A stretch of 52,576 nt of DNA from contig SOHZ01000648.1 of assembly GCA_004377365.1 (NCBI GenBank), positions 1 to 52,576 of the forward strand, in the 5' to 3' direction. Position 1 is the stretch's first letter. Every line of letters starts with the position of its first letter. This document shows, piece by piece, positions 1,834-42,235 of the stretch. The position numbers were made by a program, and so were the translations under genes. Source of the DNA: Anaerolineales bacterium. GTDB lineage: Bacteria; Chloroflexota; Anaerolineae; E26-bin7. Under the pieces are notes generated by a model. The model made no database searches and was not told where the DNA came from. It saw only the letters and a program-made list of their open reading frames with translations.

Positions 1834-2961
1834 GTGCGCATCGGCATCAACGCCTTTTACCTTGGCGCGGTCACAACGGGCAGTGGACAATACATCAACC
1901 ACCTCATCAGCCAGTTGACGCGACTAGGGGGTGAAAGCGAATACGTACTTGTTAAGAATACAGAATATAGAATGCAGAATACTTGCATCCTGCATCCTGT
2001 CTCCACGCCTTTTGACTCAATCAGCGAGAATCTGGCCAAGCTCTGGTTTGAGCAGGTTTCTTTCCCTTGCGTCTGTCGCCGTCAAGGCATTGAACTAGCC
2101 CATGTCCCTTACTTTGCTTCCCCCCTTTTCCCCACCACGCCGACGGTGGTCACCGTCCACGACCTCATTCCTATGCTCCTGCCCACCTACCGGGGCTCGA
2201 TTTTGGTGCGCCTCTACACCCGCCTGGTGGCCGCCGCAGCCAGGAAGGCCGACATGGTACTGACCGACTCTGAGGCATCCAAACAAGACATCATGCGCCT
2301 GCTGGGCATCCCAGCCGAGCGCGTGCGCGTCATCTACCTGGCTGCTGACGACATCTATCAACCGATTCTGGACGACCACCGCCTGTCTGCGACCTGTCAA
2401 AAGTACGGCCTGCCCGAAAGCTATCTCCTCTACCTGGGTGGGTTCGACCAGCGCAAGAACGTGCCGACTCTGCTGAAAGCCTTCGCCCAATTGGTAAAAG
2501 ATTCAAAAGCATTTCTGGTGATAGCTGGTCGGCTGCCGGAAAAGGGTTCAGATTTTTTCCCCGATCCACGGCCTATCGTCCAGGAGTTGGGAATAGGAAA
2601 ACGGGTGGTTTTCACCGGCTGGGTGCCGGAGGAGGACAAGCCGGCCCTCTACAGCGGGGCGCGGGCGCTCGTCTTCCCTTCTCTCTACGAAGGCTTCGGT
2701 CTGCCGCCGCTGGAGGCCCTGGCCTGCGGCACGCCAGTCATCGCCTCCAATCGGGGATCGCTGCCAGAAATCGTGGGGGACGGGGGCCTGCTGCTGGAAC
2801 CGGACGACGTGGAGAGGCTGGCAGAGGCAATGGAGAAACTGCTGAACGATGATACGTTGTGGGGAGATTTGCGGCAAAAGGGGTTAGCCCACGCGTCCAG
2901 GTTCAGTTGGGAGAAGACGGCACAGGAGACGTTAGCGGTGTATCGAGAGATAGGGGAGTGA
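1834..2961 (+). CDS. glycosyltransferase family 1 (GT4-like)
   Basis: GTG start after AAGGAG. The C-terminal 'FPSLYEGFGLPPLEALACGTPVIASNRGSLPEIVGDGGLLLEP' is the GT-B E-x7-E type nucleotide-sugar binding region. Confidence 0.85.
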   Translation: MRIGINAFYLGAVTTGSGQYINHLISQLTRLGGESEYVLVKNTEYRMQNTCILHPVSTPFDSISENLAKLWFEQVSFPCVCRRQGIELAHVPYFASPLFPTTPTVVTVHDLIPMLLPTYRGSILVRLYTRLVAAAARKADMVLTDSEASKQDIMRLLGIPAERVRVIYLAADDIYQPILDDHRLSATCQKYGLPESYLLYLGGFDQRKNVPTLLKAFAQLVKDSKAFLVIAGRLPEKGSDFFPDPRPIVQELGIGKRVVFTGWVPEEDKPALYSGARALVFPSLYEGFGLPPLEALACGTPVIASNRGSLPEIVGDGGLLLEPDDVERLAEAMEKLLNDDTLWGDLRQKGLAHASRFSWEKTAQETLAVYREIGE

Positions 2962-3004
2962 AGTCGGTCACTTCTCAAATCTGGCTTCGTACGCGTTCGG
3001 GGGT

Positions 3005-3091
3005 GTCATTGCGAGGAACGAAATGACGAAACAATCTCCACCGTTGAGAGCAATTGCACCTTGGGGATTGCTTCGCTCCGCTCGCAATGAC
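3005..3091. repeat. palindromic intergenic repeat element (arms gtcattgcgag / ctcgcaatgac)
   Basis: 11-nt terminal inverted arms at 3005-3015 and 3081-3091, plus internal complementarity. The element translates to the 'CHCERSEAIP'-type artefact ORF. There is one copy in this window. Confidence 0.6.
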
Positions 3092-3136
3092 AGATCCAGA
3101 GGTGGTCTTGCTCATTTTCGACCTCCACCTGAGCGA

Positions 3137-3423
3137 TTACCTGGCTTCTTCCTCTGCTAACTCTTCCCGCTTGGCAGAGAGATAAGTAGAAACTGAGGTC
3201 TTTTTGCCTCTGAGCATTCCACGGGCAGTTTCGATAGGGTCTTCGGAGAGGGGCACAACGATCAAGTTTTGCCTGCGTCAATCCATCGCAGCTTAGCCTT
3301 GGGCCCAATCTGATATTTTCGCCTGAGGGCAAGAGGGATCTCTGTACGTCCCTGACGCGAGACCACGGTAATGGCGCCAGTCTCCGCTGAATAGATCGTT
3401 GCAGTCTCCTTCAGCTTTGTCAT
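3137..3423 (-). pseudogene. AbrB/SpoVT (MazE-like) domain protein, frameshifted
   Basis: The ATG at 3423 follows an AGGTGA RBS. Frame A reads 'MTKLKETATIYSAETGAITVVSRQGRTEIPLALRRKYQIGPKAKLRWIDAGKT*', with its stop at 3262-3264. The expected last beta-strand and tail, 'LIVVPLSEDPIETARGMLRGKKTSVSTYLSAKREELAEEEAR*', continues in another frame to 3137. The frame break lies at an A4 run (tttt at 3267-3270 on the plus strand). Confidence 0.5.
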
Positions 3424-3446
3424 TTCGCTCACCTCTTTCAGTTACG

Positions 3447-3475
3447 ATTATAGCATAGAACGTCAGCAGCGACAA
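3447..3475 (-). promoter_or_regulatory. sigma70-type promoter for the AbrB-like ORF
   Basis: Minus strand reads TTGTCG, a 17-nt spacer, then TATAAT (3470-3475 and 3447-3452). It sits about 24 nt upstream of the ATG at 3423. Confidence 0.45.
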
Positions 3476-3485
3476 GGGGGAAATC

Positions 3486-4601
3486 TTGCGCGTCTTGATG
3501 ATTTCCAAAGCCTGCATCGTAGGCGCTTATCAGAAAAAGCTGGAAGAACTGGCCCGGTTCGATGACGTGGAGCTGACGGTCATCGTGCCGCCCTATTGGC
3601 GCGACGAGCGGGGGGTGATGCCCCTGGAACGGGTGCACACAGCAGGCTATCGCTTCATTGTCGAGCCCATGCTGCTCAACGGCCACTTCCACCTGCACTT
3701 TTACCCCGGCCTGGGGAAGCACGTCCGACGTCTTCAACCAGACATCGTCCACATTGACGAGGAGCCTTACAACCTGGCCACCTTCCAGGCTATGCGCCTG
3801 GCCAAAAGGGTAGGGGCCAAGGCCCTCTTCTTCACCTGGCAAAATCTGAAGCGCAGCTATCCCTTTCCTTTCAACTGCATTGAGAGCTACAACCTGGAAA
3901 AGGCCGACTATGCTATCGCTGGCAACCAGGAGGCGGTGGAAGTGTGGCGGGGAAAGGGATATAAAGGACCCATCAAGGTAATCCCACAATTCGGAGTGGA
4001 TCCAGAAATCTACAAAACAGACAAATCTCAAATCTCAAATCTCAAATCTCAGTTTACTATTGGTTACGTGGGACGCTTGGTGGAGGAGAAGGGAGTGCAG
4101 GTGTTGCTGCACGCTGTGGACGGACTGGCGGGGGAGTGGCGTCTGCACATTCTGGGCAGCGGTCCCATACAATCCCAGTTGGAGGCTTTGGCCCGGCAAC
4201 TGGACCTCGTTGAACGGGTGAGCTTTGAATCGCCCATCCCCTCCGCTCAAATGCCAGCCTTCTACCATCAATTGGACACCCTGGTCTTGCCCTCTCTGAC
4301 CCGGCTCCACTGGAAGGAGCAATTTGGACGGGTGCTCATCGAGGCCATGGCTTGCGGGGTACCCGTGGTCGGTTCGCGCTCAGGTGAGATCCCCCACGTC
4401 ATCGGCCAGGCCGGGCTGACCTTTACCGAGGGTGATGTCCAGGAGCTCAGAGCCAGGCTTTCTCAATTGATGGACGATCCCGATCTCCGTGCAGACCTGG
4501 CCAAGCGAGGACGAGAGCGAGTGCTGGCCCACTACACCCAGGCCAGGATCGCTACGGCAACCTACGAGGTCTATCGGCAGATAGTTAAAATCTGGGGGTA
4601 G
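3486..4601 (+). CDS. glycosyltransferase family 1 (GT4-like)
   Basis: TTG start giving 'MRVLMISKA', typical of GT4. The C-terminal 'LPSL..EQFGRVLIEAMACGVPVVGSRSGEIPHVIG' is the GT-B donor-binding motif. Confidence 0.85.
   Translation: MRVLMISKACIVGAYQKKLEELARFDDVELTVIVPPYWRDERGVMPLERVHTAGYRFIVEPMLLNGHFHLHFYPGLGKHVRRLQPDIVHIDEEPYNLATFQAMRLAKRVGAKALFFTWQNLKRSYPFPFNCIESYNLEKADYAIAGNQEAVEVWRGKGYKGPIKVIPQFGVDPEIYKTDKSQISNLKSQFTIGYVGRLVEEKGVQVLLHAVDGLAGEWRLHILGSGPIQSQLEALARQLDLVERVSFESPIPSAQMPAFYHQLDTLVLPSLTRLHWKEQFGRVLIEAMACGVPVVGSRSGEIPHVIGQAGLTFTEGDVQELRARLSQLMDDPDLRADLAKRGRERVLAHYTQARIATATYEVYRQIVKIWG
4021..4051 (+). repeat. heptanucleotide tandem repeat (tcaaatc x4, first copy acaaatc) inside the GT4 CDS
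   Basis: Read directly: acaaatc tcaaatc tcaaatc tcaaatc tca. It encodes 'DKSQISNLKSQ', the linker between the two Rossmann halves. Confidence 0.9.
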
Positions 4602-4656
4602 GCAAATTTCGAAAACTGGCCGAAAAATTATGGCGGATTTCTTCAGTTCATTCTCG

Positions 4657-5028
4657 TTACACCAACTTGCTCAAATCCGCTGCTGCGCGCTTCATATCCA
4701 AGAAGAGCATACCCAGCTTGGTGTCTTTGCGGGCCAACACAGTAAGCACAGCCTCTTCGCCTACATCTAAAAGGAGGACGTAGCCGTCGTCGCCTCGGAT
4801 GTAAACCTGATCCAACGTTCCGCGTCCCAACTCTACAGCGATGCGCTCGCCCAGGGAAAGCATAGCCGCCGACATAGCCGAGACCCGGTCCTCCTCCACA
4901 TCAGGTGGCAGAGCCGAGGCCATAATCAGACCGTCAACGCTAACCAAAGCGGAAGCCTCAACGTCCGTCGAACTGGCCTGCAGGTCCCTCAAGCGATCCG
5001 TCAACTGCTCAGTCCTCGATTTCGCCAT
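4657..5028 (-). CDS. Roadblock/LC7 (MglB-like) domain protein
   Basis: 123 aa. 'VEASALVSVDGLIMASALPPDVEEDRVSAMSAAMLSLGERIAVELGRGTLDQVYIRGDDGYVLLLDVGEEAVLTVLA' matches the Robl_LC7 pattern. An AAGGAG RBS lies upstream. Confidence 0.8.
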   Translation of the reverse strand: MAKSRTEQLTDRLRDLQASSTDVEASALVSVDGLIMASALPPDVEEDRVSAMSAAMLSLGERIAVELGRGTLDQVYIRGDDGYVLLLDVGEEAVLTVLARKDTKLGMLFLDMKRAAADLSKLV

Positions 5029-5175
5029 CGCCTTATATCTCCTTTTCCCTATGGCTGACTATAGCCAAAGTACTAGATTTAGCCCTTCGCTGCGCTCAGG
5101 GAACTTTTGCTCGGGCATAGGTAACGGGTGACGTGCAGAAAAGGGGCAACTGCACCATCTCCTCTCACTCGTTCT

Positions 5176-6081
5176 TCACCCTGGCCCAATCGCATCATGA
5201 TGGTCCTCATCACTCACTCCTTGCTGCTTACAGAACCCCGGAGGATCAGAGTCCAGAGTTTTCAGAGCCTGTCCTGAGCCCCGTCGAAGGATCGAAGGGT
5301 CCGGAGAGGAGCCGGGGGCCATCACTACCCGAAAACCGATGTTCTCGTAGGGGATGTCCGGGTTGAGCTTGGAGCGGCAGGCACAGCGGACGAAACACTC
5401 ATCGTGGCTGAACGCCCCGCCACGCAACACACGGGGGATGCTGTCCAGCGCATCCAGGTCCTCGCGGCCACCGGCCGAATCGTAAGGGGACTTGAACGAT
5501 GGCTTTTCCTGGTTCTTTCTCCACAGGCTACGCGTCCACTCCCACACGTTGCCAGCCATGTCCAACAATCCGTAAGGACTGGCCCCTTCGGGGTAGGCCC
5601 CCACCAGCGTGGTATCCCCCTTGCCGCCCTCTTTACTGTTGCATCGCTCCGCGTCCCACCGGTTGCCCCAGGGATAGATGCGCCCATCGCTGCCCCGCGC
5701 CCCCTTCTCCCATTCGGCTTCGCTGGGCAGGCAGTAGGACTTGCCGGTGACCTCGGCCAGCCAGTGACAGTAAGCTATAGCGTCATGCCAAGAGACCTCA
5801 ACCACGGGATGCTCCTCTTTGCCTCTTGGTGGTTTCCCATCTTCCCAATGTTTCGGCTGCTTGTGGCCGATAGCCTGCACAAAGGCAGCGTACTGAGCGT
5901 TGGTCACCGGCGTCTTGGCCAGGTAGTAGTCGGGCAGGTACAGAGTATGTTGGGGCTGCTTATCATCATCCGCATCTTGGTCCAAGCTGGGATCGCTGCC
6001 CATGAGGAACTCGCCAGCGGGGATGAGGACCATCTCCGGCTTGAAAGGCTGAGAGCGCTCCATGATGGCTTTTTCGATCAT
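5176..6081 (-). CDS. soluble FGE-sulfatase (SUMF1-fold) domain protein
   Basis: 'MVLIPAGEFLMGSDP..QPQHTLYLPDYYLAKTPVTNAQYAAFV..CLPSEAEWEKGARG..YPWGN..RVLRGGAF..IGFRVVMAP'. No TM helix. The last ~50 codons run into a REP-like element. Confidence 0.85.
   Translation of the reverse strand: MIEKAIMERSQPFKPEMVLIPAGEFLMGSDPSLDQDADDDKQPQHTLYLPDYYLAKTPVTNAQYAAFVQAIGHKQPKHWEDGKPPRGKEEHPVVEVSWHDAIAYCHWLAEVTGKSYCLPSEAEWEKGARGSDGRIYPWGNRWDAERCNSKEGGKGDTTLVGAYPEGASPYGLLDMAGNVWEWTRSLWRKNQEKPSFKSPYDSAGGREDLDALDSIPRVLRGGAFSHDECFVRCACRSKLNPDIPYENIGFRVVMAPGSSPDPSILRRGSGQALKTLDSDPPGFCKQQGVSDEDHHDAIGPG
5262..5300. repeat. REP-like element copy A (cctgagc / gtcgaagg motif family)
   Basis: 'cctgtcctgagccccgtcgaaggatcgaaggg' shares the cctgagc and gtcgaaggg/cccttcgac motifs with the copies at 37829, 38350 and 45427. 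Confidence 0.6.
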
Positions 6082-11469: not shown

Positions 11470-11675
11470 GTCAAAAACCTCCTTATCCTTTCTTCTCTTG
11501 ATCTTCGGCTTAATTTTCCCTTACGAGACCTCTCCATCCAGATAGGCCCCAGGTACATCCGCAAAAGTGTGGGCAGGATGTAGGTCAAGATGCTTCTGAG
11601 TGAAGCCTTCGCCGCCATCGGCTTTACAGCGCCCCGGCCGGCGGTGAGGCTGTACCCCGTTCCGGCTGGAGAGGG

Positions 11676-12392
11676 CTAAGGAGACGAGGCCGGAGTAGGG
11701 GTAGGCGGCGGGGGTGCCTCGACCACAGGGATGGAAGCGAGAGACCCTCTGACCTGGGCGTAGGAGACGGAAACCCAACCCCGGCCGATGGTGCCGGCTG
11801 GGTAAACGATTTGCAGCCAGGAGCTATCAGCGTTCTTGCCCACAATCTCCACCGCGTCGTTTTGCTGCAGTTGGCCGGCAACAGGGTAGTCGGTGCCTGG
11901 CCCCCTCCTGACGTTCAGGACCCCGGTGGTGATGGCAGCCCAAGGGGCGCCCGGCGGCAGAGTCACACTGGTCGGGGTGGTAGGAGCAGCGGCTGTCCCC
12001 TCCTCAATGACGTTAATGGTAATCGTGGCCGGGTCGCTGACCCGTCTGGCGGCATTGTAGGCCTTGACCGTCACGCTGTGGCTGCCGAGGACGGTGGCTG
12101 TCCACTCCTGGGTGACGCTAAAAGCGGGCTGCTGTTGAGAGCTGACGTCGGAGTGGACCAGCGAGCCGTCCACCCACAGTTCGACCCGGGTCACACCCTT
12201 GGCGTCGGTGGCGCTGGACTGGATGGCGACGGTTTCGCCTACCTTGACCTGGGTGCCGCTGGCCGGGGAGAGGATCGCCGCTGTTGGCTTTGTGCCGCCC
12301 CCAAGGCCGGGCAGTTCGCAGGCCAGAATGCCTGCCCCAAAAAGTAAGAGGACAGCGAGGGCCGCTATTCCCCGGAAGCGGAAGGGGAACAT
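11676..12392 (-). CDS. putative lipoprotein with Ig-like domain and bacterial SH3 domain
   Basis: Start refined to the ATG at 12392, after GGAAGGAGA. Signal/lipobox 'LLLFGAGILAC'. The Ig-like segment 'SPASGTQVKVGETVAIQSSATDAKGVTRVELWVDGSLVH...VTVKAYNAARRVSDPATITINV' is homologous to the first ectodomain of the two FHA proteins. The SH3b-like segment is 'GVLNVRRGPGTDYPVAGQLQQNDAVEIVGKNADSSWLQIVY'. Confidence 0.7.
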   Translation of the reverse strand: MFPFRFRGIAALAVLLLFGAGILACELPGLGGGTKPTAAILSPASGTQVKVGETVAIQSSATDAKGVTRVELWVDGSLVHSDVSSQQQPAFSVTQEWTATVLGSHSVTVKAYNAARRVSDPATITINVIEEGTAAAPTTPTSVTLPPGAPWAAITTGVLNVRRGPGTDYPVAGQLQQNDAVEIVGKNADSSWLQIVYPAGTIGRGWVSVSYAQVRGSLASIPVVEAPPPPTPTPASSP

Positions 12393-12460: not shown

Positions 12461-14527
12461 CTACGGCCTCTCAATGCGAGGCTCAACCCACACCGCCCAG
12501 TCCTGGCTGGGAGACCCGTTAGCCAGTAGTCTTAACGAGACATAGGAAGACCCCACAAAGATAGAGGGAAACTCAAAAGAGACATCCACAAGTGAGTTAT
12601 TATATGGCTTAACCTGGGTCCACGCCGTACTACCCCCGTTAGTGCCAGCTGTCACCATAAATCTCACATTGCCGGCGGCAGCATTCTTGAGGAATCCCAC
12701 CTTGGCCACGAACCTATCACCTGCTTGAATAGGCGAGGGCAAGTGGTACTTGCCTTGAATCCATCCGTCATTAACCCACTGAGGATGGGTTTCAAGCGCT
12801 TTCGGCCAGGTGCTCCCATCCTCAAGCTCCATACCGCCGACCGCTATGACGAAACCTTCATTGTCACCAGTGCCTCCTGGACACGGAAGCGAACCTGCCC
12901 CACTTGTCCAATTGGCATCACACATGTGGTCCATGAAATCGTATACCACCGTGGGGCCCGCAGGCGTTACATTAACCGTGACCGTCTTGTCCTCCGTGCT
13001 GGAATCCAGCTTGACTACGTGCAGGGTGTAGGTGGTAGTGGAAGCAGGACAAGTAGATCCCGACCAATGGGGACCGGTCACACCAGAGTTGGCGTACTCG
13101 GCACCGCTCAGGGTAGCTGTCTGCACGTTCTCAATGTGCACCCTCAGGGTTGTGCAATTCCCTGCGGTGATGGTATCGTCATCCACCGTGAACTCAATAA
13201 CCGATGAGGGAGGCGGCGGTTGGGTCGGCGTCGCCGTCGGAGTCTCCGTCGGAGTCGGAGTCGCCGTCGCCAGTGCGGGCACTACAATCTGCACGCTACA
13301 GGTCTGGCCAAAGACCTGCCCGTCGGGACTCTTCATCCGCCAGTGGCCGGTGTAGGTGCCCGGAGCGCTGGGCGCATACATGGTCACCCCAATGTCCACG
13401 TTGGCCCCCGCTGCGGTGGCGGGCACAGCCTGGGAAGGAGCAGCCCCCATCTGGTCGCCGGACACAAACACCCACGTGTACCCGCTCTCCCAGGGACAAC
13501 TGCCGCTGTTGCGGATGCGCCAAATCTTATCAACCTGTGTTCCAGGTGAGAAGACAGTCCCATCGGGCACGGTCACGTCGGCCACAAAGGCCGCATCCAG
13601 AGTGCAACCGGTGGGCGTGGGGGGGGGTGTCCCGGTGACGACGACAGGTGTCCCGGTCGCGGTGGGCGTACCTGGAGCCAGGGTGGATGTCACTTCACCT
13701 GGCCCAGGTGTGGTAGCCCCAGTGACGTTGACGGTGATGGCCTCCGGCTGGCTGACCCCTCCAGCAGCATTATAGGCTTTGAGCATCAGAGTATAGGTGC
13801 CAGGGGCCGACGCCCGCCAGGACTGCCGGGAGATGAAGGGCGATTGCCCCTGCGGGTTGGGACTGACGTCAGAGTGGTAGAGAACCCCATTGACCAACAG
13901 CTCGACACGGGTCACCCCTTTGGGATCGGTCGCCGTGACCTGGACAATGACCTCCTGTCCCACCGGCACCTGGCTGCCACTGGCAGGCGAGTTGATGACC
14001 ACCGTTGGCACTCCCCCGGCTATCTTCTTGCCCCGCTGGGTGTAAAGGTAGGCTCCAACGGCAGCCACGACGAGCAAGACGACAACCGCCGCGCCCAAGA
14101 GTCCCAAGGCCATCCACGACAGGCCCCCTGGCCCCTTCCTGGCCTCTGCCGGTGGGGCTGGCGGCGGGGCATAAGCTGGCGGCCGGGGGGCCGGCCCGAC
14201 TGCGGTCGGGTAAGCCCCCGCTACTGCCGGGCACTGAAAACCCAGTTGGGCCTTGCCCAGGCCGATGGTGTCGCCGTCGCGCAGGGCCTGGGCACCGGTG
14301 ACGCGCACACCGTTGACAAAGGTGCCGTTGGTGCTGCCCAGGTCCCTGATGACTGGCTGACCTCTTTCCCAGGTGATGCTGGCGTGGCGGCGAGAGACCT
14401 CAGAGTCAGTGACGACCACATCGCTGCCCACCACGCGGCCAAGAATGATGCTGTCCTTGGACACGGAAAAACGCTGGCCACGCTGGGGGCCTTGTTGTAC
14501 GGTTAAAGTAATAGAGGGTTGCTGCAT
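12461..14527 (-). CDS. FHA domain / TM / Ig-like / NBR1-like Ig / C-terminal unknown-domain protein (paralog 1)
   Basis: 688 aa with an AAGGAGG RBS. FHA segment: 'GRVVGSDVVVTDSEVSRRHASITWERGQPVIRDLGSTNGTFVNGVRV'. TM helix: 'WMALGLLGAAVVVLLVVAAVGAYL'. NBR1-like segment: 'AAFVADVTVPDGTVFSPGTQVDKIWRIRNSGSCPWESGYTWVFVSGDQMG..YAPSAPGTYTGHWRMKSPDGQVFG'. Confidence 0.8.
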   Translation of the reverse strand: MQQPSITLTVQQGPQRGQRFSVSKDSIILGRVVGSDVVVTDSEVSRRHASITWERGQPVIRDLGSTNGTFVNGVRVTGAQALRDGDTIGLGKAQLGFQCPAVAGAYPTAVGPAPRPPAYAPPPAPPAEARKGPGGLSWMALGLLGAAVVVLLVVAAVGAYLYTQRGKKIAGGVPTVVINSPASGSQVPVGQEVIVQVTATDPKGVTRVELLVNGVLYHSDVSPNPQGQSPFISRQSWRASAPGTYTLMLKAYNAAGGVSQPEAITVNVTGATTPGPGEVTSTLAPGTPTATGTPVVVTGTPPPTPTGCTLDAAFVADVTVPDGTVFSPGTQVDKIWRIRNSGSCPWESGYTWVFVSGDQMGAAPSQAVPATAAGANVDIGVTMYAPSAPGTYTGHWRMKSPDGQVFGQTCSVQIVVPALATATPTPTETPTATPTQPPPPSSVIEFTVDDDTITAGNCTTLRVHIENVQTATLSGAEYANSGVTGPHWSGSTCPASTTTYTLHVVKLDSSTEDKTVTVNVTPAGPTVVYDFMDHMCDANWTSGAGSLPCPGGTGDNEGFVIAVGGMELEDGSTWPKALETHPQWVNDGWIQGKYHLPSPIQAGDRFVAKVGFLKNAAAGNVRFMVTAGTNGGSTAWTQVKPYNNSLVDVSFEFPSIFVGSSYVSLRLLANGSPSQDWAVWVEPRIERP

Positions 14528-14675
14528 CTCATTTCCTCCTTAGTCTAGGGAGATTAAAGTCCACCGCCTTGGTATCGTTGGTGCCACCCTGGTTGTCGGC
14601 GGTGTAGAGCGTGATAGTAGCCCGGCACGGCATGCCGTTAGACTTGTCGGCGAGCCTGTTTGTGCCAATAGATGG

Positions 14676-16604
14676 TCAGGGGCTGATGGTTAGGGTCCAG
14701 ACCTTGACATTATTGTTCTCGTTCGTTTCGGCAACTTCATTGCGGTTATCAGCTTGGACCTCAACGTCATAATAACCGACCGAGGGGTACTTAAATGTGA
14801 CCGTTTTTGTACACGAAGCATATTGGGTATTTGCCGGACAGGATTCTTCCTGCCAGTCGAAGCCAGGCCCTTTTCGCCAACGAAAGTGCGAAGCCGGGAA
14901 AAAGGGTCCCCCGCTGGGATAGGTGTCGGTGACAATCATGATGAAGAGGCTGATCGTATCTATCACCGCCGGGTTGGCCGGGCTGGAATCCATCTTCTTG
15001 ACGTACAGGTCGTAAACGGCAGGCGAGGGGCAGACACCAGCTACGTGAACCGTGACCGTCCTGTCGGTCGTGCTGCCGTCGGTGAGCTCCACGTGTAAAG
15101 TGTAGGTGGTATCGTTACAAGGGCAGACTTGCTTCTCTTTATGACCGCCGATCACTGGCTCTCCGTCCAGCCAAGCAGCTCGCACATGCTCCACTCTGGC
15201 TCTGACCCAGGTACATTCCCCGGCGTTGATGTGGTCTCGGTCCACTGTGAGGCTGATCTCCGCCCCAGGCGGGGGCGGCGAGGTAGGCGTAGCCGTAGGT
15301 GTAGCGGTAGCCAGGCTCGAAACCACGATCCTCACACTGGACGTCTGGCCAAAGACCTGCCCATCGGAACTCTTCATCCGCCAGTAGCCGGTGTAGGTGC
15401 CCGGAGTACTGGGTGCATACATGGTCACCCCAATGTCCACGTTGCCACCCACGGCAGTGGTGGGCACAGCCTGGGAAGCAGCCGCCCCCATCTGGTCGCC
15501 GGACACGAACACCCACGTGTACCCACTCTCCCAGAGACAACTGCCGCTGTTGCGGATGCGCCAAATCTTGTCAATGCGGGCCCCTGGCTCAAAGACGGTG
15601 CCATCGGGCACGGTCACGTCGGCCACAAAGGCCGCATCCAGGTTACAGGGGGTGGGGGTCACGGTCGGTGTGGGGGTCACCACGATAATGACGGGGGTCT
15701 GGGTATCGGTGGGCGTGGCCGTCGGCCCCGGCGGGGTAGCCGTCGGCGTGGCCGTAGGCCCCGGCGGGGTAGCCGTCGGCGTGGCCGTAGGCCCCGACAG
15801 CGTGGGCGTGGCAGCCCCGGTGACGCTGACGGTGATGGCCTCCGGCTGGCTGACCCCTCCAGCAGCATTGTAGGCCTTGAGCATCAGAGTATAGGTACCA
15901 GGGGCCGATGCCTGCCAGGAGTGCCGGTAGATGAAGGGCGATTGCCCCTGCGGGTTGGGACTGACGTCAGAGTGGTAGAGAACCCCATTGACCAACAGCT
16001 CGACACGGGTCACCCCTCTGGAATCGGTCGCCGTGACCTGGACAATGACCTCCTGTCCCACCGGCACCTGGCCGCCGCTGGCAGGCGAGTTGATGACCAC
16101 CGTTGGCACCTTGGCTACCTTTTCGCCCCGCCGGGTATAAAGGGAAGCTCCAACGGCAGCCACGACGAGCAAGATGACAGCCGCCAGCCCAAAGAGCCCC
16201 AAGGCCATCCACGACAGACCCCCTGGCCCCCTCCTGGCCTCCACCGGTGGGGCTGGCGACCGGGGGGCCGGCCCGGCTACGGTCGGGTAAGCCCCCGCTA
16301 CTGCCGGGCACTGGAAACCCAGTTGGACCTTCCCCAGGCCGATGGTGTCGCCGTCGCTCAGGGCCTGGGAACCAGTGATGCGCACACCGTTGACAAAGGT
16401 GCCGTTGGTGCTACCCAGGTCCCTGATGACAGGCTGACCTCTTTCCCAGGTGATGCTGGCGTGGCGGCGAGAGACCTCAGGGTCACTGACGACCACATCG
16501 CTGCCCCGCACACGGCCGAGAATGATGCTGTCTTTGGCCACTGAAAAACGCTGGCCACGCTGGGGGCCTCGTTGTACGGTTAAAGTAATAGAGTGTTGCT
16601 GCAT
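14676..16604 (-). CDS. FHA domain / TM / Ig-like / PT-repeat linker / NBR1-like Ig / CARDB-like protein (paralog 2)
   Basis: Start refined to the ATG at 16604 ('MQQHSITLTV'), after AAGGAG. About 90% aa identity to paralog 1 over the first ~430 aa. The C-terminus 'YYDVEVQADNRNEVAETNENNNVKVWTLTISP' looks CARDB-like and differs from paralog 1. Confidence 0.8.
   Translation of the reverse strand: MQQHSITLTVQRGPQRGQRFSVAKDSIILGRVRGSDVVVSDPEVSRRHASITWERGQPVIRDLGSTNGTFVNGVRITGSQALSDGDTIGLGKVQLGFQCPAVAGAYPTVAGPAPRSPAPPVEARRGPGGLSWMALGLFGLAAVILLVVAAVGASLYTRRGEKVAKVPTVVINSPASGGQVPVGQEVIVQVTATDSRGVTRVELLVNGVLYHSDVSPNPQGQSPFIYRHSWQASAPGTYTLMLKAYNAAGGVSQPEAITVSVTGAATPTLSGPTATPTATPPGPTATPTATPPGPTATPTDTQTPVIIVVTPTPTVTPTPCNLDAAFVADVTVPDGTVFEPGARIDKIWRIRNSGSCLWESGYTWVFVSGDQMGAAASQAVPTTAVGGNVDIGVTMYAPSTPGTYTGYWRMKSSDGQVFGQTSSVRIVVSSLATATPTATPTSPPPPGAEISLTVDRDHINAGECTWVRARVEHVRAAWLDGEPVIGGHKEKQVCPCNDTTYTLHVELTDGSTTDRTVTVHVAGVCPSPAVYDLYVKKMDSSPANPAVIDTISLFIMIVTDTYPSGGPFFPASHFRWRKGPGFDWQEESCPANTQYASCTKTVTFKYPSVGYYDVEVQADNRNEVAETNENNNVKVWTLTISP
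15710..15800 (-). repeat. ~36-nt tandem coding repeat (~2.5 copies) encoding PTATPTATPPG units
   Basis: Read directly: 'gccgtcggcgtggccgtaggccccggcggggta' is repeated. It is present only in FHA paralog 2. Coordinates are approximate. Confidence 0.7.
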
Positions 16605-16747
16605 CGTCACCTTCTCCTTACACAGTACACAAACCAACGCTTCTACTCATAAATCCCCCAACCATCTCTAGTCCTCGTTATGGGGCAGCGATGGACAGGC
16701 GAAAACTGATGATGGGGGAACGTGGTCAAAATCAATGGCTTGCTCTC

Positions 16748-20184: not shown

Positions 20185-20255
20185 TAGTTTCCTCCTTCGT
20201 AGATAACTCCTGTAGTAAACGTAGGCCCTCGCAAGCGAGGGCCAGAGGTGGGAGG

Positions 20256-20329
20256 TGCGCCCGACAGGACTCGAACCTGCAACCTAGGGTTTAGGAAACC
20301 CTTGCTCTATCCACTTGGGCCACGGGCGC
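20256..20329 (-). tRNA. tRNA-Arg (anticodon CCT)
   Basis: The reverse complement folds as a 74-nt cloverleaf. Acceptor GCGCCCG/CGGGCGC, anticodon stem AGGGT/ACCCT with loop TTCCTAA, T-arm GCAGG-TTCGAGT-CCTGT. No encoded CCA. Confidence 0.85.
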
Positions 20330-20362
20330 ACGTCAATTGTGGTTGAACTGGGGTGAACAAAG

Positions 20363-20434
20363 CACCCCCGGGGCGACTCGAACGCCCGCACATGGCTCCG
20401 GAGGCCACTGCTCTATCCGCTGAGCTACGGGGGC
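20363..20434 (-). tRNA. tRNA-Arg (anticodon CCG)
   Basis: 72-nt cloverleaf. Acceptor GCCCCCG/CGGGGGT (G1-U72 wobble), D-arm GCTC-AGCGGATA-GAGC, anticodon loop CTCCGGA, T-arm GGGCG-TTCGAGT-CGCCC. Confidence 0.8.
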
Positions 20435-26198: not shown

Positions 26199-26292
26199 GC
26201 TAAGTGGCAATGCTATGAGCCGGGCTCTCAGAAAACGACGAACTATAAGCGAGAATCACTAGCCTTTGTCTGAAACCACCAGAGGGAATGCT

Positions 26293-26724
26293 ATGTCTGT
26301 TCGTACTGTTACTCTCAAGTTGCCGGAGCATCTTTACGAGCGATTGGAGACAAAAGCCCGGGCTGCAACCAGCTCTGTAGATGAAATCGTTGTTCAGGCA
26401 CTTGCTCGCAGTCTGCCGCCACTGGTAGAAAAAGACCTCCCGCAGCCTCTTCAGGCGGAACTTGAGGCCATGGATCACCTATCCGACGAGGCCCTCTGGC
26501 AGATTGCTGAGAGCACTATGAATCGTGACAAAGTTGCGCTTTACGATGTGCTGCTGGAGCGCCATCAAGCCGGCACCCTCACCCCCGAAGGTCAAGAGTG
26601 GTTGACCCGTCTCCGGGAAGAAGCTGAGGCTTTGATGCTGCGTAAGGCCCATGCCTATGCGCTGCTCCAAAGCCGGGGGCATAGACTGCCCACTCTCGAA
26701 GAACTCCACGCTCGGACACCGTGA
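26293..26724 (+). CDS. ribbon-helix-helix (CopG/antitoxin-like) protein with helical C-terminal extension
   Basis: 'MSVRTVTLKLPEHLYERLETKARAATSSVDEIVVQALARSL' fits an RHH fold pattern. Its stop overlaps the next gene's start (GTGA). Confidence 0.55.
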   Translation: MSVRTVTLKLPEHLYERLETKARAATSSVDEIVVQALARSLPPLVEKDLPQPLQAELEAMDHLSDEALWQIAESTMNRDKVALYDVLLERHQAGTLTPEGQEWLTRLREEAEALMLRKAHAYALLQSRGHRLPTLEELHARTP

Positions 26725-27149
26725 CCCGATCTTACGTCTCGCCCGATTTGCGCCGCCAGGTAGCAAAAGACGCCGGTCATCGTTGCGGGTACTGCCTTTC
26801 GGATGAAGTGTTGACGGGCTTACCTCTGAGCGTTGATCATATCGTCCCGGTTGCAGCCGGAGGCCCGACAACACGTGAGAACCTGTGGCTGGCCTGCCGT
26901 CCCTGCAACGAGTTCAAGGGAGCCCAGACCCACGCCGAGGATCCAGAAACCGGCGAGATCGTACCCCTGTTTAATCCTCGCACTCAAGACCGGCACGCAC
27001 ATTTTGCCTGGAACGACGACAAAACCCGCATCATCGGCTTGACTCCCACTGGTCGAGCAACGGTCATGGCGTTACAACTGAATCGCTCCATCCTGGTGAG
27101 GGCACGTTGGCGCTGGGTTATGGCTGGCTGGCACCCGCCCCAGGAATGA
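26721..27149 (+). CDS. HNH endonuclease
   Basis: 'GHRCGYCLSDEVLTGLPLSVDHIVPVAAGGPTTRENLWLACRPCNEFKG' carries the HNH motif (C..C...DH....GG...NL...C..CN..K). Confidence 0.8.
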   Translation: MTRSYVSPDLRRQVAKDAGHRCGYCLSDEVLTGLPLSVDHIVPVAAGGPTTRENLWLACRPCNEFKGAQTHAEDPETGEIVPLFNPRTQDRHAHFAWNDDKTRIIGLTPTGRATVMALQLNRSILVRARWRWVMAGWHPPQE

Positions 27150-27394: not shown

Positions 27395-27478
27395 GAAACA
27401 CGAAAATCACGAAAGGACGCGAAAACCGCGAAACGCCCTTTTCGTGTCTTTCGCTTCCTTTCGCGTCATTCGTGTTTC
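27395..27478. repeat. 84-bp imperfect palindrome (cgaaa/tttcg-rich element)
   Basis: gaaacacgaaaatcacgaaaggacgcgaaaaccgcgaaacg ... ttttcgtgtctttcgcttcctttcgcgtcattcgtgtttc. It lies between convergent genes and produces the 'FRVFRFLSR' artefact ORF. Confidence 0.6.
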
Positions 27479-27528: not shown

Positions 27529-29493
27529 TTATTCTCCTCGCAGTTCGCGCAGGTGTTGCTCGGCCTGCTCGCGCCAGTGCGGGTCGGTGCTCAATTCCAG
27601 ATAACGCTCAAAGTCGGCGATGGCTGCTTCGTGGTCACCCAGATTGCTGTGTGCTGCGGCACGGTTGAAGTATGCCTCGGCGAGGTCCGGCTTGATGCGG
27701 ATGGCTTCAGTGCAGTCGGCGATGGCTGCTTCGTGGTCGCCCAACTCTCGTTGTGCCGCTGAACGGTTGACGTATGCCCCGGCGAAGTCAGGTTTGATGC
27801 GGATGGCTTCGGTGTAGTCGGCGATGGCCGCTTCGTGATCGCCTAGATTGCTGTGTGCGATGGCACGGCCGAGGTATGCCTCGGCGAGGTCCGGCTTGAT
27901 GCGGATGGCTTCGGTGCAGTCGGCAATGGCCGCTTCGTGGTCACTCAGATTGCTGTGGGCGATGGCACGGTTCAAGTATGCCGTAGCGTAGTCGGGCTTG
28001 ATGCGGATGGCTTCGGTGCAGTCGGCAATGGCCGCTTGGTAGTCGCCCAACTCTCGTCGTGCCGCTGAACGGCTGAAGTATGCTTCAGCGTAGTCAGGCT
28101 TGATGCGGATGGCTTCGGTGTAGTCGGCGATGGCCGCTTCGTGGTCACCCAGATTGAAGTGTGCGAAGCCACGGCCGTAGTACGCTTCGGCGTAGTCGGG
28201 CTTGATGCGGATGGCTTCGGTGTAGTCGGCGATGGCCGCTTCGTGGTCGCCCAGATTGCCGTGTGCGCAAGCACGGTTGAAGTACCCTGGCGCATCCTCG
28301 GGATTCAAGTAGAGGGCGCGATCATAATCTTGCAAGGCAATCTCGTATTCCCCGAGCCAAGAGTAGCAGTTTGCCCGCCACACGTAGGCTTCCCAAGGTT
28401 TGACCCGTGTACCCTCCACAACGCTGCTCACTGCCGCATCGAAGAAAGAGATAGCCTGCCGCAACTCGGCCGATGACTCAACGACGATGTGGGTCATCCC
28501 CAGTGTAAAGAGCCCCAGATAGGCAGACTGCGAGGGAATTTCATTGAGAAAGTAGAAAGCCATTGGTGTGGGCGTTTCCAGGGCTATCCCTTCGCCTTGT
28601 ATCGTGTGTTCGCCGATCAGCTCAACGTAGGGCTGTGCCCCCAGACTGTTATACCAGCCCCAAATGACGAGATTGGCCGCGTACAGCTCGCCGAGTGTTT
28701 GTGCATCCCGCGAATTGGTTACGACCTGTTCAAATCGCTCTACCCGCGCGTTTGATTCTGGATTATCCTGAGCCGCCAGGAGAACAAAGTCATAGATTGA
28801 CGAACTGGGGTCAACGCCAACCAACTGGCCTTCACTACGGTTGTCAAACTCGGCGACGATAATTAGCGCTTCATCGTCGCTAGCCGGAGCAAAGGCCGTT
28901 GGGGTGGGCAGCAACCCTTGCAGCGTAGGGATGTTAAAGATGCTTGCTGCCAGCACAAAGGCCAGGATCAACCCCACCGTCAGAATCGCCAATCCACAGG
29001 GGGATACCACCGCCTGGAACACTTTGCGAATGGGGCTGCCAAAGAACTTTTCCACGATATCCGGGTGATGGTTCACCTTCTCGTCGAGTTCGGTGCCGGC
29101 CCAAAAGTCACACTCCAGCCCGGCCTGCTTGCAGCGCTCGCGGGCCTTTTGCCGGGTGTTGGCCGAAACGTCGCAGGTGACGAGAAACACCAGCACCGCC
29201 GGGCGCTGGTCCTCCGGCAGGGCCAGCACTTTCTTGACTTCCGTCAGCGCATCCTTTGGGTAAAAGCTCTGTACCCGCTTGCATTGAAAGGCCCACAATA
29301 CACCCTCGCGCCAGGCGATGATGTCGCGGCCCTGCTCGCTGCCCGCTGCGCCCAGGTGCTCGGCCCGTTCGTACCCTTCGCGCTTGACCAGCCACAGGCA
29401 CAGCCGTTCAAAGTCACGCGGCGACAGTTTGTCGAAGGGCAAGGGGTGAGTTGTTCCAGTGATAGGAGGTTGGGGCTGGGTCATAAGATTCAC
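27529..29493 (-). CDS. Mrr-like restriction-endonuclease-fold domain / TM helix / TPR-array protein
   Basis: N-terminus: 'LSPRDFERLCLWLVKREGYERAEHLGAAGSEQGRDIIAW..LWAFQCKR' (Mrr_cat-like D...QxK). TM helix: 'GLAILTVGLILAFVLAASIF'. Eight C-terminal 34-aa TPRs. The likely start is the ATG at 29484, after AAGGTG. Confidence 0.7.
   Translation of the reverse strand: MNLMTQPQPPITGTTHPLPFDKLSPRDFERLCLWLVKREGYERAEHLGAAGSEQGRDIIAWREGVLWAFQCKRVQSFYPKDALTEVKKVLALPEDQRPAVLVFLVTCDVSANTRQKARERCKQAGLECDFWAGTELDEKVNHHPDIVEKFFGSPIRKVFQAVVSPCGLAILTVGLILAFVLAASIFNIPTLQGLLPTPTAFAPASDDEALIIVAEFDNRSEGQLVGVDPSSSIYDFVLLAAQDNPESNARVERFEQVVTNSRDAQTLGELYAANLVIWGWYNSLGAQPYVELIGEHTIQGEGIALETPTPMAFYFLNEIPSQSAYLGLFTLGMTHIVVESSAELRQAISFFDAAVSSVVEGTRVKPWEAYVWRANCYSWLGEYEIALQDYDRALYLNPEDAPGYFNRACAHGNLGDHEAAIADYTEAIRIKPDYAEAYYGRGFAHFNLGDHEAAIADYTEAIRIKPDYAEAYFSRSAARRELGDYQAAIADCTEAIRIKPDYATAYLNRAIAHSNLSDHEAAIADCTEAIRIKPDLAEAYLGRAIAHSNLGDHEAAIADYTEAIRIKPDFAGAYVNRSAAQRELGDHEAAIADCTEAIRIKPDLAEAYFNRAAAHSNLGDHEAAIADFERYLELSTDPHWREQAEQHLRELRGE
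27580..28293 (-). repeat. 7 x 102-nt near-identical tandem coding repeats (TPR units 2-8)
   Basis: Units are of the form 'AEAYxxRxxAxxxLGDHEAAIADxTEAIRIKPDx'. The second half of each unit is almost invariant at the nucleotide level. Confidence 0.85.
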
Positions 29494-29610: not shown

Positions 29611-29970
29611 TCAGAATGGAAGCCACATCGTGCGATCCACCCACTCCTTGGCCTCACTGGCCGCCCAGATCAGATAGAGCGCTTCCGCTAATGGGCCTAT
29701 CCTGACTCCAGGGCGTGTCCAGGCGATCCCCCAATGATGCCTCCCGGCGGCAGCATGGCCGGCAACACAAGACGGTATGCTGCTCCTGTTATCCGTGACC
29801 AGGAACCGCTGCGTCGCTTCAAGATAGCTCAAGATATCGGGGTCGAGGGTACCCAGAGGTGGCGCGCTCTCGTCCCCCACCCGTAGCACGTCAATCGCTG
29901 CATCGTAGCGCCAGAGGGCCGCCTTTAAGCGAGGCGTCAGGTTCTCGTCAAGCAGAAAGCGCACCTTCAC
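29611..29970 (-). CDS. DUF5615 (PIN-like) putative toxin
   Basis: The GTG at 29970 overlaps the upstream stop (GTGA). 'VRFLLDENLTPRLKAALWRYDAAIDVLRVGDESAPPLGTLDPDILSYLEATQRFLVTDN' matches the DUF5615 pattern. Confidence 0.65.
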   Translation of the reverse strand: MKVRFLLDENLTPRLKAALWRYDAAIDVLRVGDESAPPLGTLDPDILSYLEATQRFLVTDNRSSIPSCVAGHAAAGRHHWGIAWTRPGVRIGPLAEALYLIWAASEAKEWVDRTMWLPF

Positions 29971-30305
29971 GGGCGCTGCTCCTGGATGGCTCGCAATCGC
30001 TGAACCAGCGGTGGTGGATCGGCGGCCCACTCCTCGTACTCCCGTTCATAGCGCTCCCTCAAGCGGGCAAGATAGGCATCCACCTCCGCCTGATGGCGCA
30101 GATAGTAGGTGATGGTGGCATAGATCTTTTCTAGGCTCAACCCTGGAAATTCTTTGGCAATTTCATCCGGGTTGTACCCTTCGTGGTAGTACGAGAGTAC
30201 ATGTTCGATGCCAATCCTGTGCCCCTTGATACGAATGGCATCGCTTGACTGAGGCTCACGAGCGTCCGACCCCAGAAAATCAAAATAGTCTTCTAGTTGC
30301 ATCAA
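29967..30305 (-). CDS. DUF433 putative antitoxin
   Basis: 'IRIKGHRIGIEHVLSYYHEGYNPDEIAKEFPGLSLEKIYATITYYLRHQAEVDAYL' matches the DUF433 pattern. Confidence 0.7.
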   Translation of the reverse strand: MMQLEDYFDFLGSDAREPQSSDAIRIKGHRIGIEHVLSYYHEGYNPDEIAKEFPGLSLEKIYATITYYLRHQAEVDAYLARLRERYEREYEEWAADPPPLVQRLRAIQEQRP

Positions 30306-41180: not shown

Positions 41181-41413
41181 TTCCCCAGCCTTTTTCTTTT
41201 TAAGGTTCAAACTATTGCAAAAGGTAGCAATTGGTGATATACTGGTACGAAGCTTGTTCCATACCACCTCTGAAGGCATCGTGGCGGCATCTGAGCTGTC
41301 AGGGTAGGTCATTATGGTCAAGTGACTATGTGCCCTCCAAGAGGATGCGGCGCACGATTAAGCTATGCCAAATTGTATCAGCAGAGCGACTAAATCTGAA
41401 AGGAGAAAACAGA

Positions 41414-42235
41414 ATGAGAGAGAAACTTTGGACCGTTTTGGCGGTCGTGGTCATCCTCAGTCTGGGGCTGGCAGCCTGTGGCCCCACACCGACGCCGGTG
41501 CCAACCGATACCCCTGTGCCGCCGACGGATACCCCTGTGCCGCCGACGGATACCCCTGTACCGCCGACGGATACCCCTGTACCGCCGACGGATACCCCTG
41601 TGCCGCCGACGGATACCCCTGTGCCGCCGACGGATACCCCTGTACCGCCAACCGATACCCCTGCACCAGCAGCACCGCCTCCCACTCCCACCCCTGTCGC
41701 TTCCCCTGCTCAGGAACACTTTGAGAAGGGATTCGACTACTTCCAACAGGAGAAGTGGGACGAGGCCATGGCCGAGTTCCAGGAAGCCATCCGACTAGAC
41801 CCGGAGTTTGGCGATGCTTACTGGGGATTGGGCTACAGCCATGCCAACAAAGGGGAGTTCGAGAAAGCGATCGAGGCCCTGGAGAAATATCTGCAACTGG
41901 TGCCCGGTGCCAGTGATCGCGCGCAGGTGGAAGCCCACATCCAGCAAATGCGGGACATCCTTGCTTCTCGGCCACCCTGCTGCGAGCCACTGCAACCGGG
42001 CAAGGGGGCGATCTGGTTTGAGAACCACGTGGGCGAAACCGTGCAAGTGGACGTCGGCCCCAATTTCTACGAGGTTCCGCCCAAGGTGGGCGATACACCA
42101 GGTTGCCTCTGCCCTCAACTCGACCCGGGGACCTATCCGGCTATTCTCAAAACAGGGAGTGCAGAAGGACGCTGGGACATTATAATAGAAGCAGGGAAGA
42201 TATGGCCCCAGCCGCTCTCCTACGAGGGATACTAA
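41414..42235 (+). CDS. lipoprotein with PTDTPVP tandem repeats, TPR segment and Cys-containing C-terminal domain
   Basis: ATG at 41414 after AAGGAG. Signal/lipobox '[12 protein letters not shown]'. 8x 'PTDTPVP'. TPR-like '[50 protein letters not shown]'. Confidence 0.7.
41500..41667 (+). repeat. 8 x 21-nt tandem coding repeat (gccgacggatacccctgtRcc)
   Basis: Read directly. The Val codon alternates gtg, gtg, gta, gta, gtg, gtg, gta and then gca (Ala) in the last unit, which suggests duplication of a 4-unit (84-nt) block. Confidence 0.9.

Follow-up and report, generated by a model that had tools for sequence, protein, structure and literature searches.

What kind of protein combines a nuclease-like domain, a membrane helix and a row of nearly identical tetratricopeptide repeats (TPRs) that vary mainly in their first helix? 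This question is raised by an open reading frame (ORF) on contig SOHZ01000648.1 of the Anaerolineales bacterium assembly GCA_004377365.1 (Chloroflexota), the whole 52,576-nt stretch of which was analysed and is referred to here as the window. The ORF spans positions 27529 to 29493 on the reverse strand and encodes 654 aa when counted from a GTG start; translation probably begins at the ATG at 29484 instead, giving 651 aa, which is the start called (MTQPQ...) in another assembly and agrees with the family alignment. No exact copy of the full-length product is on record. We read the product as a single-pass membrane protein of the modular conflict type, i.e. with a cytoplasmic Mrr-type head, an external α/β domain and eight TPRs, without an NTPase switch, and as one head variant of a large family built on a constant chassis, and we give this reading about an even chance of being right in full. 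More generally, the protein is probably a modular immune or conflict receptor without an existing name.

The order of its parts, i.e. head, transmembrane helix, a region of about 170 aa and eight TPRs, was already given in a preliminary description made from the nucleotide sequence, and Pfam and hydropathy bear it out. The Pfam scan placed Mrr_cat (PF04471) on residues 21-119 (40.2 bits, cut-off 21) and eight TPRs on residues 367-638 (TPR_1 E=1.8e-66). The same description had likened the protein to immune proteins of the STAND (signal transduction ATPases with numerous domains) type. This does not hold, since neither the Pfam nor the NCBIfam scan found an NTPase family in the protein, and we rejected its classification as a STAND protein because there is no P-loop NTPase and a transmembrane helix and an unrelated α/β fold lie between head and repeats.

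A widely shared Mrr-type head

The N-terminal head (29038..29445, reverse strand; approximately residues 17-152) had been thought to carry a restriction-endonuclease (REase) fold, an assignment that gains support from the Mrr_cat score, from a structural model and from an alignment. An AlphaFold2 model for residues 1-157, based on 23 homologues (pLDDT 90, pTM 0.83), had the Mrr head of Avs4 (8dgf_B) as its top Foldseek match (TMq 0.61, root-mean-square deviation 3.6 Å, 135 columns), with further matches to AF1548 (1y88), Cdn1, EcoT38I and archaeal Holliday-junction resolvases (Hjc). Searches of the PDB by sequence were nearly empty, i.e. phmmer found no match to the head and a profile search a marginal one, to AF1548 alone, and the fold assignment therefore rests on structure prediction. 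In the profile alignment, GRDIIAW...FQCK of the head stands opposite IDVVA...IECK of AF1548, which places D57 on the D and Q70-C71-K72 on the ExK of the motif. Mrr-type enzymes often have Q replacing E at this position, and ECK is found in one homologue. An upstream acidic residue, E29, is located in the first helix of the head. Among the 23 homologues, E29 and K72 are invariant, while D57 and Q70 are kept in at least 90 %. Hence the PD-(D/E)xK catalytic residues, the lack of which had been named as an argument against a nuclease, are present as D57, Q70 and K72. As modelled, the head is an Avs4-like Mrr-type PD-(D/E)xK domain with intact motif residues, and a predicted nuclease.

The same head, at 65-84 % identity, forms the N-terminus of more than 100 proteins with more than ten types of body, including NACHT, NB-ARC, AAA_16, nSTAND1, TIR, SIR2_2, FHA, HNH, NERD, FGE-sulfatase, M23 peptidase, CarboxypepD_reg and EAD1. 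The kinship with immune-type proteins proposed earlier is thus real in so far as the head is common to NACHT and NB-ARC proteins. Its carriers mostly come from Anaerolineales-type metagenomes; the nearest genomes are uncultured Anaerolineae/Anaerolineales metagenome-assembled genomes (MAGs), with single matches in Phycisphaerales and others. No relative of either the head or the middle domain was found in IMG/VR contigs, and a viral origin was rejected on this ground. One homologue of 238 aa (P0005) shares the Mrr head and the transmembrane helix at 84 % identity, but its tail is of low complexity and unrelated, which gives it the look of a Mrr head/transmembrane helix/TPR protein that has been frameshifted or truncated.

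Alternatively, the head might act mainly as a homotypic adaptor. It would couple the membrane protein to NACHT or NB-ARC proteins that have a Mrr head of their own and are encoded at other sites of the genome, whereby mixed head oligomers would either form an active nuclease or pass the signal on. In favour of this, the head (65-91 % identity) is far more conserved than the rest of its carrier proteins, two related MAGs possess at least two loci each bearing it, and most heads found on the chassis described below are adaptors rather than enzymes. The clearest case is contig L006, where a homologue of the same Mrr_cat/transmembrane helix/TPR layout (P0008; 6001-7938) lies about 0.7 kb downstream of an Mrr_cat-NACHT gene (2853-5297): the bodies of these adjacent genes differ, while their heads are 91 % identical over 153 residues, i.e. 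closer than heads across genomes. Judged from the sequences, this suggests head exchange within the genome or co-assembly of the heads, and it parallels the 'EAD principle' (EAD, effector-associated domain), according to which adjacent copies are most similar (PMC7159879). Against a mainly adaptor role, the catalytic residues are invariant or nearly so, which argues that an enzymatic role has probably been retained, and no second Mrr-headed gene lies within the 52.6-kb window. We therefore regard this alternative as rather unlikely.

A constant chassis with interchangeable heads

The region between the transmembrane helix and the repeats (residues 198-366; 28396..28902, reverse strand) had been recorded as unassigned. 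As to Pfam this is correct, with no match even at E<=10 here or in 12 family members tested; what had been missed is that the region is a widespread α/β domain within a shared chassis. In its AlphaFold2 model (pLDDT 83.5, pTM 0.80), two long helices come after a β-α-β-α-β-β-β unit, and Foldseek returned weak but coherent matches (E ~5e-4, TM-score 0.35-0.45) to the N-terminal domain of TolB and to PelC, FlgT and LpoB, each of which belongs to the periplasm or the envelope. Further matches were prolyl-tRNA synthetase and proteins with a Brix domain (Brx1), the matching parts of which we assign to one fold class with the N-terminal domain of TolB. An identity with the TRADD-N domain was considered and rejected, as there is no Pfam match and the top 50 Foldseek neighbours are TolB-N/PelC-like and anticodon-binding-like.

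A profile of this middle domain recovered 1,830 clusters at 50 % identity from a representative library (E<=1e-3), 855 of them at E<=1e-10. Transmembrane segments were counted in the 145 top-scoring representatives and whole-protein Pfam scans were run on 80; since the latter were swamped by TPR models, the heads of 40 were rescanned alone. A transmembrane-like segment lies about 17 residues upstream of the α/β domain in 131/145 representatives, and TPRs follow the domain in 79 of the 80 (Pfam). The heads, by contrast with this constant part, are diverse: among the 40 scanned alone, EAD7 was found in 11, HTH_17 in five (15/80 in the whole-protein scan), EAD1 in four, EAD8 and the bacterial Death-like domain bDLD1 in two each, and a protein kinase, AAA_35 and Mrr_cat in one each. 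In P0004, the closest relative of the chassis studied here (middle domains 70 % identical), the head is another one, of low complexity. In many chassis heads, that of P0004 among them, G-D-x-V-G-R-D-K-I/V-like motifs recur directly ahead of the transmembrane helix. A profile word-index search with the middle domain yielded mostly fragments, with taxon hints to Chloroflexi, Planctomycetota and Anaerolineales.

Head and chassis are therefore both swappable modules, and the constant transmembrane helix/α/β domain/TPR chassis with interchangeable heads is a large family without a name in Pfam or PADLOC. A constant part joined to many alternative heads is what characterizes modular conflict systems. 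Considering that the head is common to NACHT, NB-ARC, TIR and SIR2 proteins and that the chassis carries EAD and Death-like heads, we group the protein with the conflict systems of multicellular bacteria.

The resemblance of the α/β domain to the envelope-assembly proteins TolB, PelC, LpoB and FlgT, as well as the envelope glycosylation genes upstream in the window, would also fit a more modest role, i.e. a TPR array that serves as a structural or envelope anchor and senses no ligand, with a chassis that merely positions the head at the membrane. However, the chassis does not carry envelope enzymes as heads but domains typical of conflict systems, i.e. adaptors for signalling, DNA-binding domains, kinases and nucleases, and homologues adjoin STAND genes, P0009 being flanked on both sides by NB-ARC+TPR genes and P0008 lying next to the NACHT gene mentioned above. 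Together with the evidence from the repeats given below, this leaves a pure anchor doubtful.

Membrane topology

The protein contains one strong hydrophobic segment, VVSPCGLAILTVGLILAFVLAASIF, at approximately residues 163-186 (28936..29007, reverse strand), with a Kyte-Doolittle mean of 2.7 over 19 residues. R and K precede this segment, and no basic residue follows it. The same bias runs through the family: among 137 members, the number of K+R in the 15 residues upstream was higher than that downstream in 92, equal in 27 and lower in 18 (Wilcoxon p=3e-11). Moreover, every head type identified on the chassis is a cytoplasmic-type domain, and Pro/Thr-rich linkers follow the helix in several family members. 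The positive-inside bias and the cytoplasmic-type heads point to an N-in/C-out helix, with the head inside the cell and the α/β domain and TPRs probably outside, a topology predicted from sequence features.

In the description of the protein as a membrane-tethered sensor, tethering agrees with the hydrophobic segment and the charge bias. A consequence of the topology had been missed: with an array predicted to lie outside the cell, any sensing would concern external or envelope ligands and not phage proteins inside it.

On this basis, a chain of events can be proposed. The concave face of the external array would bind a ligand at the cell surface or envelope, and binding would cluster the receptors, bringing their cytoplasmic heads into the dimer or tetramer needed for activity, by analogy with Avs4. 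The assembled heads might then cut DNA at the membrane, the target being either incoming foreign DNA or, in a suicidal response, the cell's own. If concave residues are free to change, ligand specificity could drift or diversify, and the siblings with HTH_17 or EAD heads suggest that the same chassis could drive transcription or recruit effectors instead.

It is tempting to speculate further that the protein is an 'outside-in' innate receptor without an NTPase, in which fast-turnover surface TPRs bind a ligand from outside, for example a phage particle, the surface of a neighbour or a piece of the envelope, and assemble an Avs4-type nuclease through a single helix. In this extended form the proposal is improbable rather than likely. 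If true, the protein would correspond, among prokaryotes, to surface receptors of the receptor-like or Toll-like kind, couple surface surveillance directly to a suicide or restriction nuclease on a chassis also connected to networks of Death-like and EAD adaptors, and define a large domain family without a Pfam model (~1,800 clusters at 50 % identity). Its interest lies in the position of the sensor: the bacterial pattern-recognition proteins characterized in the papers considered here (Avs/STAND) sense phage proteins inside the cell, whereas the family studied here is predicted to put canonical, recently reshuffled TPRs outside, wired to conflict-system heads such as a nuclease, adaptors of the Death-like and EAD types, kinases and HTH domains.

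Concerted evolution of the TPR array

The eight repeats are numbered here from unit 0, the N-terminal cap, through the internal units 1-6 to unit 7, the last one (units 1-7 corresponding to units 2-8 of the preliminary description). Unit 0 (28294..28395, reverse strand) is divergent, with 43-47 % nucleotide identity to the other units. It is followed by the homogenized internal units (27682..28293; 6 x 102 nt), by unit 7 (27580..27681) and by a C-terminal solvating helix tail, TDPHWREQAEQHLRELRGE (27532..27579), which is kept across the family (alignment columns 800-834). The block of exactly 7 x 102 nt at 27580-28293 that had been noticed before agrees with Tandem Repeats Finder, which reported 6.6 copies at a 102-nt period and, in addition, a 306-nt period, and with the canonical TPR register, the 34-residue pattern being present at positions 4, 7, 8, 11, 20, 24, 27 and 32.

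Amino-acid identity among units 1-6 is 65-85 % (mean 75 %). At the nucleotide level, codons 14-34 of these units are 84-97 % identical, as against 51-85 % in codons 1-13, i.e. helix A. The second half of the units, formerly called almost invariant, is therefore highly similar rather than invariant, and unit 7, which keeps a helix A of a common type (NRAAAHSN), differs in helix B after AIAD, in accordance with its role as C-terminal cap. Likewise, of the positions said to differ between units (2 and 5-13), positions 2, 5, 6, 8, 9, 11, 12 and 13 do, but 7 (always R) and 10 (always A) are constant throughout the array, as is position 4, and positions 24 and 34 have to be added. Only a small number of helix A types can be distinguished, SRSAARRE/NRSAAQRE being found in units 3 and 6 and NRA(I/A)AHSN in units 4, 5 and 7.

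When the units were compared one by one at the nucleotide level with those of P0004, the two ends and the interior behaved differently. Unit 0 is 75 % identical to the first unit of P0004 but at best 47 % to any unit of its own gene, and unit 7 is 69 % identical to the last unit of P0004, its best match within the gene being 66 %. Each of the six internal units, in contrast, finds its best match in the same gene (83-87 %, versus 72-81 % to P0004 units), and no one-to-one orthology of internal units exists between the two genes. In addition, the proportion of synonymous differences (pS) at scaffold codons is 0.31 within the gene but 0.60 between the studied protein and P0004, and 0.69 in the non-repeat middle domain. 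The internal units have therefore been duplicated or homogenized after the split from the P0004 lineage, with the caps remaining fixed, i.e. they evolve in concert between orthologous end units. This is the homogenization by repeat turnover that had been suspected, and the comparison with relatives proposed at the time gave repeat numbers of about 5 to 9 among the homologues.

Near-identical repeats are prone to misassembly, and a collapsed, expanded or chimeric array had been named as a refutation of the whole pattern; we consider such an artefact very improbable. In a second assembly (JGI 3300022535), the 24,862-nt contig L002 agrees with the window without a difference for 11,670 nt, up to and including unit 5, and then breaks inside unit 5/6. 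Its last 105 nt (11671-11776) contain 12 mismatches, including one that introduces a stop codon, a pattern typical of a poor contig end; this stop codon explains the 556-aa database entry P0001. The agreement between assemblies thus covers units 0-5 and not units 6-7, this being the only other contig with the gene, and two exact 24-mer scans of metagenome contigs recovered no further copy of the locus. Nevertheless, exact repeats within the array are at most 50 nt long, the helix A segment of every unit is unique, the reading frame is unbroken across all units, the end unit and tail are orthologous to their counterparts in P0004, and the homologues have similar arrays.

Variable sites and selection

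Mapped by the TPR register, the variable sites coincide with positions 2, 5, 6, 9, 12, 13 and 34 of the concave face, as had been expected for the helix A variability. Magliery and Regan reported positions 2, 5, 9, 12, 13, 33 and 34, all concave, to be the most variable ones in TPRs, with positions 2, 5, 6, 9, 12 and 13 touching the ligand in HOP (PMC1261162). Within-protein entropy in 100 family members likewise peaks at positions 2, 5, 9, 12, 13 and 34.

By the Nei-Gojobori method, dN/dS is 1.0 at the eight variable codons of this gene (pS 0.48; proportion of nonsynonymous differences, pN, 0.49), 0.16 at codons 14-34 and 0.06 at the conserved helix A codons. The variable codons of the relatives gave pN/pS values of 0.7 (P0004), 1.7 (P0009) and 1.75 (P0008). 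Counted as minimum changes, nonsynonymous to synonymous changes amount to 15:2 at six concave codons versus 11:15 elsewhere in this gene (Fisher p=0.004), and to 51:10 versus 59:56 when four proteins are pooled (p=2e-5). The clustering of nonsynonymous changes at concave codons is therefore not due to chance. However, the pooled nonsynonymous fraction at these codons (0.84) is not significantly above the value of about 0.78 expected under neutrality (p=0.18).

These figures bear directly on the proposal that the helix A surface is under arms-race selection on a homogenized scaffold, which would make the protein an immune sensor of the STAND or abortive-infection type that adapts rapidly. Apart from the concentration of changes at concave codons and the ratios above 1 in P0009 and P0008, the concerted internal units and the variable repeat number are in line with it, and the TPRs of fungal NOD-like receptors (NLRs) show the same regime with proven positive selection (PMC4986451). 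On the other hand, the ratio is 1.0 in this gene and 0.7 in P0004, the pooled excess is not significant, and there is no NTPase domain to make the protein a STAND-type sensor. Furthermore, the helix A type NRAIAHSN also occurs in P0004, so that some variants are old and conserved, and the appreciable synonymous divergence among units (pS 0.24-0.31) indicates that turnover was not very recent. Altogether, an arms race of this kind appears possible but somewhat unlikely. Diversifying selection on the binding surface had been part of the preliminary description, which itself took a dN/dS at or below 1 as speaking against it, so that the value of about 1 leaves such selection not established; it is possible, and relaxed constraint at the concave sites of an otherwise constrained, homogenized scaffold fits the data equally well.

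Relaxed constraint is also what the anchor explanation would predict, according to which concave helix A is weakly constrained and the uniform helix B reflects packing constraint plus recent tandem duplication. The ratio of about 1 at the variable codons and of 0.06-0.16 elsewhere agrees with this, and so does the finding that the entropy peaks of the 100 family members are positions variable in TPRs generally (PMC1261162). The degree of homogenization fits less well, since in helix B identity the studied protein ranks 11th of the 100 members, over the family norm (median 0.47).

Relationship to known systems

Returning to the reading as a modular conflict protein, one of the closest known systems is Avs4 (8DGF), which likewise has an N-terminal Mrr head, the best structural match of the one studied here, and in which, as in our protein, TPR-like repeats are the presumed sensor and an oligomerization-dependent nuclease is expected. 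The Mrr heads of Avs4 mediate tetramerization, by which they are activated, and the two dimers make up the active sites independently of one another (bioRxiv 10.64898/2026.08.25.746987). The two proteins differ in that Avs4 has a STAND NTPase, which our protein lacks, in that our protein has a transmembrane helix between head and repeats, with the latter predicted to be extracytoplasmic, and in that its TPRs are canonical 34-residue units while the sensor of Avs4 is large and irregular.

The conflict systems of multicellular bacteria described by Kaur et al. (2020, 2021; PMC7159879, PMC8195603) also combine a constant body with variable effector or adaptor heads. EAD, bacterial Death-like and nSTAND families belong to their vocabulary and Mrr-like REases are among their listed effectors. 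The heads shared with the families studied here are EAD1, EAD7, EAD8, bDLD1, REase, TIR and SIR2, and the lineage of the host is filamentous. Unlike our gene, those systems have a MoxR-vWA, GTPase or STAND core, none of which lies beside the gene in the window, and no description of a body made of a transmembrane helix, a TolB-N-like α/β domain and TPRs was found in the parts of the two papers that were searched. The bacterial TRADD-N proteins treated in section 9 of PMC8195603 follow the same logic of layout, with a variable head (REase, HNH, TIR, EAD1, EAD7 or HTH), a middle α/β domain and C-terminal TPRs or other repeats, some of them adjoining AP-ATPase+TPR genes. Here, however, the middle domain has no TRADD_N match and is preceded by a transmembrane helix.

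As to the repeats, a pattern of homogenized units with variable concave sites is already documented in fungal NLRs, whose TPR, ankyrin (ANK) and WD repeats are homogenized, vary in number and confine variability to the concave face, as in our protein (Dyrka et al. 2014, PMC4986451). The fungal repeats were recognized by more than 85 % identity, a level that the array studied here, with its mean of 75 % at the amino-acid level, does not reach; positive selection has been proven for the fungal TPRs, compared with a pN/pS of 1.0 here; and the fungal repeats are attached to an NTPase, whereas this array is bacterial, predicted to be extracytoplasmic and without one. Even a conservative reading thus yields a bacterial TPR array that evolves in concert like fungal NLR repeats. 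A diversity-generating retroelement would leave a template repeat nearby, but the window holds no second copy of the array, reverse transcriptase not having been specifically searched for. An unrelated TPR protein of 334 aa is encoded at 41231-42235 (forward strand), with repeats 25-38 % identical to those of the array.

In topology, the protein resembles regulators of the ToxR/CadC type, which are also single-pass and N-in, combining a sensor domain outside the cell with a cytoplasmic head directed at nucleic acids. The chassis members with an HTH_17 head (15/80) match this logic directly, but the head of ToxR/CadC is a winged-helix DNA binder and that of our protein a nuclease fold with catalytic residues, and there is no sequence relationship between them.

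Several points weigh against the reading as a modular conflict protein. No system-specific PADLOC model matched the protein, the matches being limited to the domain level, i.e. candidate PDC-M58A (E=5e-9, head only), the nuclease domain of ZorD (E=1e-4) and generic TPR models. No system partner gene is present in the window, where the gene is flanked by an HNH pair and by a DUF433/DUF5615 pair, with housekeeping genes beyond. The ligand is hypothetical, signal transfer through one helix is assumed, and the TolB-N-like assignment is based on weak Foldseek scores (TM-score 0.35-0.45). In addition, a head as highly conserved as this one is unusual for a plain effector and could also be an adaptor, and with a dN/dS of about 1 at the concave codons an arms race is not demonstrated.

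Neighbouring genes

Downstream of and convergent with the gene, positions 26266-27149 (forward strand) encode a 152-aa protein without a family match, followed, with an overlap of 4 nt, by a 142-aa HNH endonuclease, the motif of which is weakly similar to the HNH of IscB and Cas9d (NCBIfam E=1.5e-9, far under the cut-off). Between this pair and the gene, a weak terminator-like hairpin (27407-27422, reverse strand) lies downstream of the stop codon; otherwise, the scan for promoters and terminators was uninformative. Upstream, 118 nt away and on the same strand, a DUF433 gene (112 aa) and a DUF5615 gene (139 aa) form a pair (29611-30305, reverse strand) that looks like a module of the toxin-antitoxin type, the two ORFs overlapping by 64 nt when taken from their first possible starts. 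Beyond both flanking pairs follow housekeeping genes. Further away, two tandem paralogues of 688 and 653 aa (12461-16637, reverse strand) are each composed of FHA, Big_7 and N_BRCA1_IG (Ig-like) domains, in this order. Finally, two adjacent tRNA-Arg genes with anticodons CCT and CCG are located at 20254-20434 (reverse strand), the sole Rfam and ARAGORN matches in the window.

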